Source of the DNA: Escherichia coli
GTDB lineage: Bacteria; Pseudomonadota; Gammaproteobacteria; Enterobacterales; Enterobacteriaceae
Assembly (NCBI RefSeq): GCF_044324785.1
Contig: NZ_CP172127.1
Direction: 5' to 3' (one strand)
Length of the DNA stretch: 64,000 bases
Shown piece after piece: positions 28,420 to 49,406 of the stretch; position 1 is the first letter of the stretch, and each line of letters opens with the position of its first letter. A program made the position numbers and the translations under genes. The notes below the pieces were generated by a model. The model did no database searches, had not been told where the DNA came from, and was given only the letters and a program-made list of their open reading frames with translations.

Positions 28420-28530
28420 TAAAAAGTATTCAGAATCAGGCCGGAGTGTTTAACACTCCGTAAACACGGTCGTACATCCAGCCGGTAGCCTGGTTCCTTG
28501 CATTGAGTGATGTACGGAGTTTATAGAGCA

Positions 28531-35105: not shown

Positions 35106-35882
35106 ATGTCCGAAACAAAAAACGAACTTGAAGATCTGCTGGAAAAAGCAGCAACCGAACCGGCGCACCGCCCGGCCTTTTTCCGTACGCTACTGGGATC
35201 CACCGTCTGGGTGCCTGGTACGGCGGCGCAGGGCGAGGCTGTGGTTGAAGATAGCGCACTTGATTTACAGCACTGGGAAAAAGAAGACGGCACCAGTGTC
35301 ATTCCTTTTTTCACCTCGTTAGAAGCACTTCAACAGGTGGTTGAAGACGAACAGGCATTTGTCGTAATGCCCGTTCGCACATTGTTTGAGATGACCCTTG
35401 GCGAAACGCTCTTCCTTAATGCCAAACTGCCAACCGGTAAAGAATTTATGCCGCGTGAAATCAGTTTGCTGATTGGTGAAGAAGGAAATCTGCTGAGCAG
35501 CCAGGAAGTACTGGAAGGCGGTGAATCGCTGATATTATCGGAAGTTGCAGAGCCACCAGCACAAATGATTGATTCACTCACCACCTTATTTAAAACCATT
35601 AAGCCAGTGAAGCGTGCTTTTCTTTGTTCAATTAAAGAGAACGAAGAGGCACAGCCTAATTTACTTATTGGCATTGAAGCCGATGGTGATATCGAAGAAA
35701 TTATTCAGGCGGCGGGAAGTGTAGCGACCGATACATTACCTGGCGATGAACCCATCGATATTTGTCAGGTGAAAAAAGGGGAAAAAGGAATTAGCCACTT
35801 TATTACCGAACATATTGTGCCATTCTATGAACGTCGCTGGGGTGGTTTTTTGCGTGACTTTAAACAGAACCGGATAATCTAA
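35106..35882 (+). CDS. sseB: SseB (enhancer of serine sensitivity) family protein
   Basis: 258 aa from MSETKNELEDLL; position between pepB and sseA. Confidence 0.85.
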   Translation: MSETKNELEDLLEKAATEPAHRPAFFRTLLGSTVWVPGTAAQGEAVVEDSALDLQHWEKEDGTSVIPFFTSLEALQQVVEDEQAFVVMPVRTLFEMTLGETLFLNAKLPTGKEFMPREISLLIGEEGNLLSSQEVLEGGESLILSEVAEPPAQMIDSLTTLFKTIKPVKRAFLCSIKENEEAQPNLLIGIEADGDIEEIIQAAGSVATDTLPGDEPIDICQVKKGEKGISHFITEHIVPFYERRWGGFLRDFKQNRII

Positions 35883-35885
35883 AAT

Positions 35886-35912
35886 ATGCCGCCCCAAAGG
35901 GCGGCATTCGGG
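35886..35912. terminator. Bidirectional intrinsic terminator: ends sseB on the + strand and the putative ryfA transcript on the - strand
   Basis: Hairpin gccgccc caaa gggcggc; on the - strand it is followed by atatttt. Confidence 0.55.
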
Positions 35913-36199
35913 CTTACCTGCTGTTCTGAAGGTTGTTAACCACCAATAAATTGTTGCCGGAGAGACTCCGGTTATTATTTACCTCGGTTAACAGCGCACC
36001 AGAAACAATAAGTACGATACAAAAGCACCGTATCTTCATTGTGCGGTCCATGCGAAGACCGCATCACGACAGCACCACTGGCGATATTGCCGCGATAGCA
36101 AGCGCTGAGACGCGCTTGCCCTAACGGTCGCGGAACATCCTTTCCTTAAGCCAGCGCCCGCTTGCGAGACGGCGGAAAGGTCCGCAGTGGATAACACAC
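35893..36199 (-). ncRNA. ryfA: Putative ryfA transcript (about 300 nt), a small mRNA/sRNA carrying a short hydrophobic ORF
   Basis: From memory, ryfA lies next to the sseB 3' end in K-12. Candidate - strand promoter (-35 TTGTCA, 16-bp spacer, -10 TATTGT) near 36207-36234 and the terminator at 35886-35912 bound a roughly 300-nt unit. Confidence 0.45.
35914..36051 (-). CDS. Small hydrophobic ORF (45 codons; 41 from the internal Met at 36039): MDRTMKIRCFCIVLIVSGALLTEVNNNRSLSGNNLLVVNNLQNSR; candidate type I toxin-like membrane peptide (TimP-like)
   Basis: Hand-translated from the - strand; hydrophobic stretch CFCIVLIVSGALL; lies inside the putative ryfA transcript; not in the ORF track because it is under 60 aa. 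Confidence 0.35.
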   Translation of the reverse strand: MDRTMKIRCFCIVLIVSGALLTEVNNNRSLSGNNLLVVNNLQNSR

Positions 36200-36262
36200 T
36201 AACAGAACAATAATAACTCTCTTTTACTTGACAAAAAGAGAGTTACTGGCGAGTATTGTGTC

Positions 36263-36359
36263 CGCTGAGACGCGCTTGCATTACTACGGTTATACAATCT
36301 GCTGGAAAGGCCGCGAACCAAACCAGCAACAAATAACCGCCTGATTTTGGCGGTTTTTT
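36263..36359 (+). ncRNA. Candidate sRNA (about 97 nt) divergent from ryfA, with a 17-nt perfect antisense match to the ryfA 5' region; antitoxin-like (TimR-like)
   Basis: Promoter TTGACA (36228-36233), 17-bp spacer, GAGTAT; internal hairpin tgctgg...ccagca; intrinsic terminator aaccgcc tgatttt ggcggtt plus T6 at 36335-36359; 36263-36279 is identical to 36103-36119 on the same strand. Confidence 0.4.
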
Positions 36360-36539
36360 GTTGTTTAAAGAAAGTGAAATTACACGTTTAAGTAATATCT
36401 TTTACCAGTTAGTATATTTTAATATTAAGCGGGATTTGTTTATATTTGTCTGAATTCGGACTGATAAGCCAAATGAATTCAAAATCTATCCTTTTTTATC
36501 TACTTGACATCGTTGATGCATAAAGCGAGTATTGAGTAG

Positions 36540-36626
36540 ACGAGATACACTTGCAGTAATACAACCTGCTGGAAAGGCCGCGAATCAGACCAGCAATAAA
36601 AAAACCGCCAAATTCGGCGGTTTTTT
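36540..36626 (+). ncRNA. Sibling copy of the candidate sRNA (about 87 nt) with degenerate antisense region; its terminator is bidirectional and also serves sseA
   Basis: Same promoter architecture (TTGACA 36504-36509, 17-bp spacer, GAGTAT), same internal hairpin (cctgctggaaaggccgcgaa...cagca), terminator aaaaaaaccgccaaattcggcggtttttt. Confidence 0.35.
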
Positions 36627-36642
36627 ATTGCCTGTAAAAAGC

Positions 36643-37488
36643 TTATTTCAATGGCTCAACCGGTAAATCTGCCCGTGCGCCCCATTCACTCCATGCGCCG
36701 TCGTACAGTTTCACGTTTGGCACATCCAGCGTCGCGAGTGCCAACAAAACCACGGCTGCCGTTACACCAGAACCGCAACTGACGATAATAGGTTTGTCAT
36801 AACTTACGCCGCGACCAAAAAATATCGCATCCAGTTCATCGGTCGTTTTTAGTTCGCCTTCGCGCACCAGTTCCGTCCACGGAACATTCAGTGCTCCGGG
36901 AATATGTCCGCGACGTAAACCTGGGCGAGGTTCATCAACTTCTGCGTTAAAACGTGCAGCCGGGCGGGCATCGATAATTTGCGCCGTATTTTCATGGCTT
37001 GCCAATAACACATCGGTTACTTTCACCACGGCTTCAGGATTAAACGCGGCGTTAAACTCTCCTTCCGGCAGCTCTACTGCGCCTTCTTCTAATAGCAGAT
37101 CATCACGCTGCCAGCCTGCAAGTCCACCACCCAGAATCGACACTTTCTCTACACCAAAGGTGCGCAGCATCCACCATGCTCGTGGGGCTGAGAAAAGATT
37201 ACCTTCGTCATAGACAATCAGGTGCTTATCCTGGTTAACGCCTAATTCACGCATCGCCACGGCGAACGTTTCCGGGCGCGGCAGCATGTGCGGAAGCGGG
37301 GAAGTGTGATCAGAAAGCGCTTCGATATCAAAAAACACTGCGCCGGGAATATGTCCATTCAGATACTCCTGAGCAACGTTACGATCTTCCTGTCCAGGCG
37401 ACGCCATGCGGGCATCGATAATCTGAATTTCCGGGTCATCAATATGTTCGGCGAGCCAGTCGGCTCCTACAAACCATGTCGTGGACAT
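36643..37488 (-). CDS. sseA: 3-mercaptopyruvate sulfurtransferase (tandem rhodanese domains)
   Basis: 281 aa from MSTTWFVGADWL; active-site Cys loop (CGSGVTA); ORF-track upstream extension rejected. Confidence 0.9.
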   Translation of the reverse strand: MSTTWFVGADWLAEHIDDPEIQIIDARMASPGQEDRNVAQEYLNGHIPGAVFFDIEALSDHTSPLPHMLPRPETFAVAMRELGVNQDKHLIVYDEGNLFSAPRAWWMLRTFGVEKVSILGGGLAGWQRDDLLLEEGAVELPEGEFNAAFNPEAVVKVTDVLLASHENTAQIIDARPAARFNAEVDEPRPGLRRGHIPGALNVPWTELVREGELKTTDELDAIFFGRGVSYDKPIIVSCGSGVTAAVVLLALATLDVPNVKLYDGAWSEWGARADLPVEPLK

Positions 37489-48177: not shown

Positions 48178-49296
48178 ATGCATAACCAGGCTCCAATTCA
48201 ACGTAGAAAATCAACACGTATTTACGTTGGGAATGTGCCGATTGGCGATGGTGCTCCCATCGCCGTACAGTCCATGACCAATACGCGTACGACAGACGTC
48301 GAAGCAACGGTCAATCAAATCAAGGCGCTGGAACGCGTTGGCGCTGATATCGTCCGTGTCTCCGTACCGACGATGGACGCGGCAGAAGCGTTCAAACTCA
48401 TCAAACAGCAGGTTAACGTGCCGCTGGTGGCTGACATCCACTTCGACTATCGCATTGCGCTGAAAGTAGCGGAATACGGCGTCGATTGTCTGCGTATTAA
48501 CCCTGGCAATATCGGTAATGAAGAGCGTATTCGCATGGTGGTTGACTGTGCGCGCGATAAAAACATTCCGATCCGTATTGGCGTTAACGCCGGATCGCTG
48601 GAAAAAGATCTGCAAGAAAAGTATGGCGAACCGACGCCGCAGGCGTTGCTGGAATCCGCCATGCGTCATGTTGATCATCTCGATCGCCTGAACTTCGATC
48701 AGTTCAAAGTCAGCGTGAAAGCGTCAGACGTCTTCCTCGCTGTTGAGTCTTATCGTTTGCTGGCAAAACAGATCGATCAGCCGCTGCATCTGGGGATCAC
48801 CGAAGCGGGTGGTGCGCGCAGCGGGGCGGTTAAATCCGCCATTGGTTTAGGTCTGCTGCTGTCTGAAGGCATCGGCGACACGCTGCGCGTATCGCTGGCG
48901 GCCGATCCGGTTGAAGAGATCAAAGTCGGTTTCGATATTTTGAAATCGCTGCGTATCCGTTCGCGAGGGATCAACTTCATCGCCTGCCCGACCTGTTCGC
49001 GTCAGGAATTTGATGTTATCGGTACGGTTAACGCGCTGGAGCAACGCCTGGAAGATATCATCACTCCGATGGACGTTTCGATTATCGGCTGCGTGGTGAA
49101 TGGCCCAGGTGAGGCGCTGGTTTCTACACTCGGCGTCACCGGCGGCAACAAGAAAAGCGGCCTCTATGAAGATGGCGTGCGCAAAGACCGTCTGGACAAC
49201 AACGATATGATCGACCAGCTGGAAGCACGCATTCGTGCGAAAGCCAGTCAGCTGGACGAAGCGCGTCGAATTGACGTTCAGCAGGTTGAAAAATAA
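48178..49296 (+). CDS. ispG: 4-hydroxy-3-methylbut-2-enyl diphosphate synthase (MEP pathway)
   Basis: 372 aa, Cys ligands ([15 protein letters not shown]). Confidence 0.95.
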
Positions 49297-49386
49297 TAAC
49301 GTGATGGGAAGCGCCTCGCTTCCCGTGTATGATTGAACCCGCATGGCTCCCGAAACATTGAGGGAAGCGTTGAGGGTTCATTTTTA
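49297..49386 (+). ncRNA. sroE: Probable SroE-like 3'UTR-derived sRNA between ispG and hisS
   Basis: Two stem-loops (gggaagcg cctc cgcttccc; tgaaccc...gggttca) followed by T5 at 49381-49385; from memory, SroE sits in this spacer in K-12. Confidence 0.45.
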
Positions 49387-49406
49387 TATTCAGAAAGAGA
49401 ATAAAC

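Follow-up and report, generated by a model that had tools for sequence, protein, structure and literature searches.

Comparative evidence that the sseB–sseA spacer of an Escherichia coli chromosome holds the timP (ryfA)–timR type I toxin–antitoxin locus

We analysed a window of 64,000 nucleotides from Escherichia coli (the whole stretch of DNA under study; RefSeq assembly GCF_044324785.1, contig NZ_CP172127.1) and find that the spacer between sseB and sseA holds, with a probability that we put at about 93%, the timP (ryfA)–timR type I toxin–antitoxin locus in its E. coli form. The messenger RNA (mRNA) of a small hydrophobic protein, TimP, is here accompanied by a divergently transcribed small RNA (sRNA), TimR. 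The locus is already known; it has been published since 2020, is annotated in RefSeq, and its mechanism is well dissected. The K-12 gene ryfA in the sseA–sseB spacer was renamed timP and the divergent sRNA is timR (Andresen et al. 2020, PMC7667032), and the sseB–sseA synteny of the window is the one described for K-12. An earlier note on this DNA had described the spacer as densely organised and had likened it to the type I module timP/timR of Salmonella. Since Rfam, NCBIfam, and RefSeq identify ryfA/timP, and PMC7667032 names timP and its divergent sRNA timR, that reading is correct: the locus is the same, and both transcription units are found within the 760-nt spacer where the note had put them, with revisions to the start codon and promoter of timP. 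The main finding is not new, while the comparative evidence for it, namely the coding signature, the covariation of seed and target site, and the covariation of a pseudoknot, has been re-derived independently.

When the whole window is scanned with Rfam at the gathering threshold, ryfA (RF00126) is recognised on the minus strand at 36185..35881 with 318.6 bits (E = 8e-88; gathering score 80). The match is untruncated and spans model positions 1–296, and ryfA, which the earlier note had expected as a minus-strand unit of about 300 nt, is thus recovered at full model length. The terminator that the note had seen is also found by a terminator scan, as a hairpin at 35907–35886 followed by a U-tract, and corresponds to the 3′ hairpin of the Rfam model. 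The 305-nt RNA is highly structured, with a minimum free energy of −136.4 kcal/mol (z = −6.5 against shuffled sequences), and an RyfA of ~300 nt has been detected in Shigella dysenteriae (Fris 2017). Of 5,426 complete E. coli genomes, 5,425 are hit by a megablast search with positions 35800–36700. In the genomes examined, RefSeq names the open reading frame (ORF) timP at equivalent coordinates. At the protein level, the NCBIfam model NF040796 (toxic_TimP) matches with 83.7 bits against a cut-off of 45, covering profile positions 1–39 of 40.

The earlier note had proposed an ORF of 45 codons. This ORF exists, and a study of strain CFT073 (PMC8205139) likewise used 45 codons, but the start that is conserved lies at the second ATG, position 36039, because the four-residue extension MDRT is missing in Rahnella, Erwinia, and Yersinia similis; the protein hence has 41 residues. 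Similarly, the NF040796 alignment begins at residue 5 of the 45-residue translation, and the RefSeq coding sequence of strain N3, which carries a 100% identical ryfA, corresponds to window positions 35914–36039 (41 codons). TimP is hydrophobic near its N-terminus, with a mean Kyte–Doolittle value of +2.6 over residues 5–18.

An ORF of 45 codons is by itself unremarkable, because 54 ORFs of at least 20 residues overlap the surrounding 3.5 kb. One rival reading takes the ORF for a side effect of conserved RNA structure and not for a gene, with the two transcripts forming a purely non-coding pair of a sense/antisense-like type. Besides the frequency of such lengths by chance, two observations speak for it: conserved hairpins of the Rfam model overlap the coding region, and no peptide was detected in Shigella. 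The comparative data nevertheless make it very improbable. In a cross-genus sample consisting of the window and 15 Enterobacterales loci, all Rfam-confirmed ryfA at 180–313 bits, the ORF, with the pattern MK(I)R(C/Y)xCIxLxVxG..., is kept in frame in 16 of 16 sequences (seven genera, among them Escherichia, Citrobacter, Superficieibacter, Yersinia, Rahnella, and Erwinia). When 18 full-length RNAs are aligned with MAFFT on nucleotides only, insertions and deletions within the ORF measure just 3 or 6 nt, all multiples of three, in contrast to 1, 2, 5, 14, 18, and 23 nt in the 5′ untranslated region. By the Nei–Gojobori method, the proportion of synonymous differences exceeds that of non-synonymous ones (pS > pN) in 13 of 13 pairs, and the ratio of non-synonymous to synonymous rates (dN/dS) lies between 0.07 and 0.92 in the 11 computable pairs, dropping to 0.07–0.17 in pairs among Yersinia, Erwinia, and Rahnella. 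In-frame conservation and an excess of synonymous change, whose absence the earlier note had listed among the refutations of its reading, are thus both observed. Further points against the non-coding reading are the match to a curated NCBIfam model and the experiments in Salmonella, in which His-tagged TimP was detected and a start-codon mutant was not toxic (PMC7667032).

The loci of the cross-genus sample came from a contig pattern scan with the SL4 hairpin (stem-loop 4; GCGGTCNNNGCANNGACCGCAC), which returned at least 120 loci, mostly from unrelated GC-rich genomes; among the matches listed, 15 were Enterobacterales and none was Salmonella. A TimP homologue search with a word index of limited reach returned nearly only Escherichia and Shigella, one partial Klebsiella match, and no Salmonella sequence. 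The Salmonella-like 38-residue form of Citrobacter was used as a proxy for the Salmonella sequence.

The leader of the timP RNA carries the architecture published for Salmonella: stem-loops SL1–SL4, a pseudoknot between SL1 and SL3, and an SL4 that sequesters the Shine–Dalgarno sequence are all present in the window (Table 1). Over the 41 published pairs and the alignment of 16 leaders, 96.3% of 656 cells are paired, while sliding the partners by 1–3 columns leaves only 36–49% paired. The pseudoknot helix, essential for timP translation in Salmonella (PMC11228461), is paired at 7/7 positions in 16/16 leaders, with compensatory double changes in three of the seven pairs. Site 2 is nearly invariant, with G57, C59, C60, G61, and U62 unchanged in 16 sequences. 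Its counterpart in Salmonella is C57/C58/G59; when these nucleotides pair with site 4, the Shine–Dalgarno sequence becomes free (Eleftheraki et al. 2026, PMC13000454). SL4, all seven pairs of which are invariant across the 16 sequences, buries the Shine–Dalgarno GGA (36049–36047) and holds the upstream in-frame AUG (36051–36049). The numbering agrees with that of Salmonella to within 1–2 nt (G75/G81/G133 here, G76/G81/G131 there).

On the plus strand, the earlier note had predicted a unit of ~97 nt with its own promoter and intrinsic terminator. This unit is TimR, which we place at ~36262–36361 (~100 nt) because the 5′ end of a sequenced K-12 RNA maps to 36262, because that RNA gives bands of ~95 and 100 nt, and because of the terminator position. 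The K-12 RNA is ECS011 (= IS129), sequenced and detected on Northern blots by Shinhara et al. (2011, PMC3175480); its start (CCGCUGAGACGCGCUUGC... / CCGCUGAGACGCGCUUGCAUUAC...) lies 6 nt downstream of the −10 box. The promoters of timP and timR are arranged back to back, as the note had described, with overlapping −35 hexamers. TimR has no family of its own in Rfam: an E-value search for one gave nothing but terminator-driven noise.

The link between the two genes is an exact 17-nt direct repeat, CGCTGAGACGCGCTTGC (repeat D2), at 36103–36119 and 36263–36279. These are its only two exact copies in the window, and 0.34 matches with up to three mismatches are expected in shuffled sequences. As the copies are transcribed from opposite strands, the 5′ end of TimR is perfectly complementary to timP RNA 67–83, within SL2, and the TimR site probed in Salmonella lies at the equivalent SL2 position (PMC11228461). 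RNAduplex gives −44.5 kcal/mol and an uninterrupted 17-bp helix for TimR and the resident timP; this and all other duplex energies refer to restricted segments, since long segments (145 nt against ~200 nt) returned meaningless full-length duplexes.

The pairing is conserved while its sequence is not. A core motif of TimR, TGGAAAGGCCGC, is conserved across six genera, and a divergent upstream unit with this core is present at 13 of the 16 cross-genus loci. At these 13, a continuous helix of 17–24 bp forms with the equivalent leader position, the paired sequence differing by lineage; TimR seed and timP target thus co-vary across the six genera and across four E. coli classes described below. Every enterobacterium analysed in PMC7667032 likewise has TimR-like complementary sRNAs upstream of timP. 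In three ryfA homologues, those of Y. similis, Yersinia aleksiciae, and Citrobacter amalonaticus (loci L075, L120, and L084), the 5′ leader is shortened and the TimR core motif is absent from the 800 nt upstream. In Y. similis (L075 4361–4467, plus strand), the Rfam sRNA Ysr224 lies directly upstream of ryfA on the same strand.

One further Rfam match falls on this part of the spacer. The family IS128 (RF00125) matches at 36317..36495 on the minus strand with 166.4 bits, on a stretch that takes in AT-rich spacer sequence and, in reverse complement, the TimR terminator. Strand-specific K-12 Northern blots detected no IS128 RNA and only the opposite strand; the authors regard IS128 as an artefact or as condition-specific (PMC3175480). 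A genuine RNA of this family probably does not exist.

Homology with Salmonella makes the mechanism published there the best supported for this locus. The minus strand would give a highly structured mRNA of ~305 nt whose 146-nt leader forms four stem-loops, the fourth burying the Shine–Dalgarno sequence. Translation would occur only from an alternative conformer, in which RNA 30–36 pairs with 104–110 as a pseudoknot and the long-range pairing of RNA 57–62 with 124–129 opens SL4. Pairing of the TimR 5′ end with SL2 would destabilise the pseudoknot conformer and thereby block translation of TimP, a protein of 41 residues with a signal-peptide-like hydrophobic N-terminus. The mechanism was worked out in three papers (PMC7667032, PMC11228461, and PMC13000454). 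Salmonella TimP enters the inner membrane, and its over-production makes the membrane leaky (PMC7667032); its toxicity is also seen in an E. coli host (PMC7667032, PMC13000454), and repression by base pairing of TimR has been proven in Salmonella with compensatory mutations. By analogy with these Salmonella experiments, E. coli TimP would be expected to be toxic and to be targeted to the membrane, and TimR to repress its translation.

Several observations weigh against the toxin–antitoxin reading. The literature holds no experiment showing that E. coli TimP is made or toxic; a 2026 study of avian pathogenic E. coli (APEC) says of its toxicity that it "remains to be determined", and saw no phenotype when timR was deleted (PMC13188913), and the negative peptide result mentioned above was obtained in S. 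dysenteriae (Fris 2017). In the uropathogenic E. coli (UPEC) strain CFT073, ryfA alleles with a destroyed ORF complemented all ryfA phenotypes (PMC8205139). In the sequences themselves, dN/dS is 0.55–0.92 in some close pairs, and E. coli TimP departs from the Salmonella-like 38-residue form beyond about residue 18. Lastly, a substitution in the probable −10 box suggests that timP may be weakly transcribed in the window strain.

Because ORF-less ryfA complements in UPEC and the APEC timR deletion is neutral, a regulatory-RNA role is a live rival. RyfA would then be mainly a trans-acting regulatory RNA with TimR as its partner or sponge, the ORF would be dispensable or the RNA dual-function, and toxin–antitoxin activity would be at most part of the picture. 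We hold this to be a realistic possibility, if one short of even odds. The phenotypes restored by ryfA with ORF stops or frameshifts in CFT073 include fimbriation, motility, and stress responses (PMC8205139), and in APEC the ryfA deletion attenuates virulence while the double deletion of ryfA and timR behaves as wild type again (PMC13188913). Over-produced RyfA1 eliminates ompC mRNA in S. dysenteriae (Fris 2017), and there is a paper on the binding of RyfA by ProQ. However, the ORF is conserved as a protein (in frame, with indels in threes, and with pS > pN), the leader known to gate translation is conserved with covariation, and the Salmonella homologue is translated and toxic. The regulatory role is also compatible with the toxin–antitoxin reading; the two are not exclusive.

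The 5′ end of timP bears on its promoter. The earlier note had placed the promoter at 36207–36234, and the hexamers are indeed present there (TTGTCA-16-TATTGT), but an RNA from this promoter would start near 36200. The accepted 5′ end, used in Rfam, K-12, and CFT073, lies ~15 nt further downstream at ~36185 (Rfam position 1, and in agreement with the +135 numbering of CFT073), and it fits a −10 box at 36196–36191 better. Counted from 36185, the timP ATG is at +147 here and at +145 in Salmonella, so that the 5′ ends are consistent. In six genera (Escherichia, Citrobacter, Superficieibacter, Yersinia, Rahnella, and Erwinia), the RNA 5′ end is preceded at a distance of 5–7 nt by a conserved −10-like motif, GTAnnAT. 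The TTGTCA-16-TATTGT promoter may be an upstream or second promoter of timP; its −35 hexamer (36234–36229, minus strand) is the one that overlaps TTGACA of timR (36228–36233, plus strand).

The C at 36195, an A-to-G change at the second position of the probable timP −10 box, is private to the window: over the 63-nt segment around it, none of 4,489 matching genomes is identical, the best reaching 98.4%. Either the toxin gene of this strain alone has a promoter-down mutation, or the base was misread in sequencing. The overlapping −35 hexamers of timP and timR are framed by a perfect 12-nt inverted repeat (TAACTCTCTTTT / AAAAGAGAGTTA; 36214–36245). This repeat is present in the K-12 remnant module, is missing from the O157-type allele, and could be an operator or merely promoter symmetry.

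Between timR and sseA, the spacer contains a second TimR-like gene. A segment of 86 nt at 36556–36641 repeats 36289–36374 at 78% identity (repeat D1), and the GCGAGTATTG motif of the timR promoter is found again upstream of the second unit (repeat D3), where the promoter reads TTGACA-17-GAGTAT (36504–36532). The predicted 89-nt RNA has a TimR-like fold, while its seed, AGACGAGAUACACUUGC, differs from that of TimR, here called class 1. With the resident timP, it reaches −17.0 kcal/mol and a helix of 5 bp, against −44.5 kcal/mol and 17 bp for TimR.

Within the E. coli sseB–sseA spacer, around a conserved core CTGCTGGAAAGGCCGCGAA, at least four classes of timP site and TimR seed can be distinguished: class 1 (GAGACGCGCTT), class 2 (GTGAAACACCT), class 3 (GTGGGGTGCCT), and class x (CGAGATACACTT). 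Cognate pairs reach −33.6 to −44.5 kcal/mol with helices of 17–20 bp; non-cognate pairs mostly lie between −12 and −25 kcal/mol, with a few at −33 to −37, such as class-1 TimR with class-2 timP. The second unit, of class x, is present and nearly invariant in 394 of the 5,426 complete genomes, and annotated in none of them. Its cognate timP allele, with the site GCAAGCGACGAGAUACACUUGC, occurs in 39 of the 5,426 (for example MSB1_4I and the tandem-module strain E7-1N7; loci L128 and L129) and not in the window. Since class-x timP is found in only these 39 genomes, the second unit is an orphan in the window strain and in ~350 others. We had considered that no cognate class-x timP exists, and rejected this: a chimeric query gave matches of 95% only, the real allele has different flanks, and it was found by inspecting the tandem-module strains.

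Other spacers combine these classes in other ways. In K-12 (the derivative L002, 1584–2400), timP is of class 2, and the adjacent TimR, of class 1 and thus non-cognate, is the expressed ECS011; the cognate class-2 TimR is the distal copy, with 46 nt left over from the 5′ end of a second timP lying in front of it. The K-12 annotation "C0614" may reflect this distal TimR, although its published coordinates end up slightly upstream of it. In strain AH50 both of two modules are complete and cognate. Some strains have two full modules in tandem, including a duplicated 84-nt fragment of the sseB 3′ end; tandem modules are seen at L129 (1980–3460) and L130, and spacer architectures were also compared in L003 and L004. 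In about 3,400 genomes the spacer is short, and its TimR combines a class-1 seed with a terminator resembling the one of the second unit. Such spacers are shorter by exactly the distance between the repeats (267 nt), which fits a deletion by recombination between TimR units. In two loci (L006, strain 06-00048; L128, strain MSB1_4I), insertion sequences (ISEcB1 of the IS3 family and IS1A) have entered the part of the spacer that separates timP/TimR from the distal TimR or from sseA, which fits a structurally unstable region.

The contrast of 394 with 39 genomes, the non-cognate layout of K-12, and the tandem-module strains lead us to suggest, as a speculative reading that we regard as rather doubtful, that the second unit is an expressed orphan antitoxin and the spacer a recombination hotspot in which at least four classes are duplicated, shuffled, and orphaned. 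If so, orphan TimRs could neutralise incoming non-resident timP alleles or have other targets. Mismatched or orphan TimRs and classes that vary by strain could also help explain conflicting results in E. coli, such as the neutral timR deletion; the cognate TimR needs to be checked strain by strain, being in K-12 the distal copy and not the adjacent one. We found no description of the orphan TimR or of class shuffling in the literature searched, and regard them as a modest side observation that is apparently undescribed; Fris et al. (2017) did describe a "variable region" and two modules in tandem, ryfA1/ryfB1 and ryfA2/ryfB2.

Table 1. Features of the sseB–sseA spacer and its surroundings (window coordinates; RNA positions count from the timP 5′ end).
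Feature	Coordinates	Strand	Basis or remark
Spacer between sseB (end 35882) and sseA (minus strand, start 36643)			760 nt
timP mRNA (= RyfA RNA), ~305 nt	35881..36185	−	Rfam RF00126
timP coding sequence, 41 aa (MKIRCFCIVLIVSGALLTEVNNNRSLSGNNLLVVNNLQNSR) and stop	35914..36039	−	RefSeq coding sequence, NCBIfam, conservation
45-codon ORF, extended to the in-frame ATG at 36051	35914–36051	−	ORF list
timP intrinsic terminator, AUGCCGCCC-UUUG-GGGCGGCAU and U-tract	35881..35907	−	9-bp stem, 7 G–C pairs
SL4, RNA 124–143; 5′ arm = site 4	36043..36062	−	Rfam consensus structure, published role
Pseudoknot site 3, GCCAGUG, RNA 104–110, SL3 loop	36076..36082	−	Pairs with RNA 30–36
SL2 in the timP 5′ untranslated region, RNA 67–88	36098..36119	−	Exact repeat and duplex prediction
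TimR-binding site in SL2, RNA 67–83	36119–36103	−	17-nt complement
Site 2, GACCGU, RNA 57–62	36124..36129	−	Complementary to SL4 5′ arm
Pseudoknot site 1, CGCUGGC, RNA 30–36, upper SL1	36150..36156	−	Pairs with RNA 104–110
Probable timP −10 box	36191..36196	−	TGTTAT in the window, TATTAT in other E. coli examined
timP promoter candidate of the earlier note, TTGTCA-16-TATTGT	36207..36234	−	Consensus scan, 9/12 matches
timR promoter: −35 TTGACA 36228–36233, 17-nt spacer, −10 GAGTAT 36251–36256	36228..36256	+	Sequence reading
TimR sRNA, ~100 nt, class 1: 5′ seed, central hairpin CUGCUGG...CCAGCA, terminator	36262..36361	+	
TimR terminator and T-run, bidirectional	36335–36355	+	Terminator scan
Second TimR-like gene: TTGACA 36504–36509, GAGTAT 36527–36532, predicted RNA 36538–36626 (89 nt), terminator 36599–36626	36504..36626	+	

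Elsewhere in the window, the Rfam scan gives two more matches at gathering level, the iscRS stability element at 28420–28529 (plus strand, 131.7 bits) and the sRNA sroE at 49296–49387 (plus strand, 116.6 bits), both expected for this chromosomal region.

Among known systems, the locus of the window is most directly compared with timP–timR of Salmonella Typhimurium, to which it is related. The two are alike in RNA family and protein family, in a related neighbourhood beside sseB and sseA, in having a divergent, non-overlapping antitoxin whose 5′ end pairs with SL2 of the leader, and in the pseudoknot sites, the pairing of sites 2 and 4, and an SL4 that sequesters the Shine–Dalgarno sequence. 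They differ in the protein, which has 38 residues in Salmonella and 41 in the window, with diverging C-terminal halves. The window also has an extra in-frame ATG four codons upstream and a second TimR-like gene, and its spacer, unlike that of Salmonella, is without an STM2534-like gene.

The pairs RyfA1/RyfB1 and RyfA2/RyfB2 of S. dysenteriae (Fris 2017) are the same genes under older names. The "variable region" of each RyfA matches its cognate RyfB, and RyfB1 lowers RyfA1 and not RyfA2; Fris et al. read the pair as one sRNA regulating another. S. dysenteriae has two complete modules, whereas in the window a single toxin gene is accompanied by two antitoxin-like genes.

Paralogous antitoxin RNAs also occur in the Ibs–Sib and Ldr–Rdl systems, where short variable regions discriminate cognate from non-cognate toxin mRNAs; the Sib RNAs are true cis-antisense RNAs. 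The four timPR classes of E. coli are analogous to these, but they represent alleles, or tandem copies, of one locus, where the classes of toxin and antitoxin often fail to match or lack a partner.

To our knowledge, the divergently transcribed type I loci of E. coli (tisB–istR1, shoB–ohsC, zorO–orzO, and dinQ–agrB) have no sequence homology to timPR. Judging from the papers on them and from general knowledge, they nevertheless resemble it in encoding a hydrophobic peptide of fewer than 50 residues behind a sequestered ribosome-binding site, and in having a divergent sRNA that pairs, in a trans-like manner, far upstream of the start codon. The timP mRNA is distinct from all of these in that it needs no nucleolytic processing and relies on a purely structural pseudoknot switch (PMC11228461).

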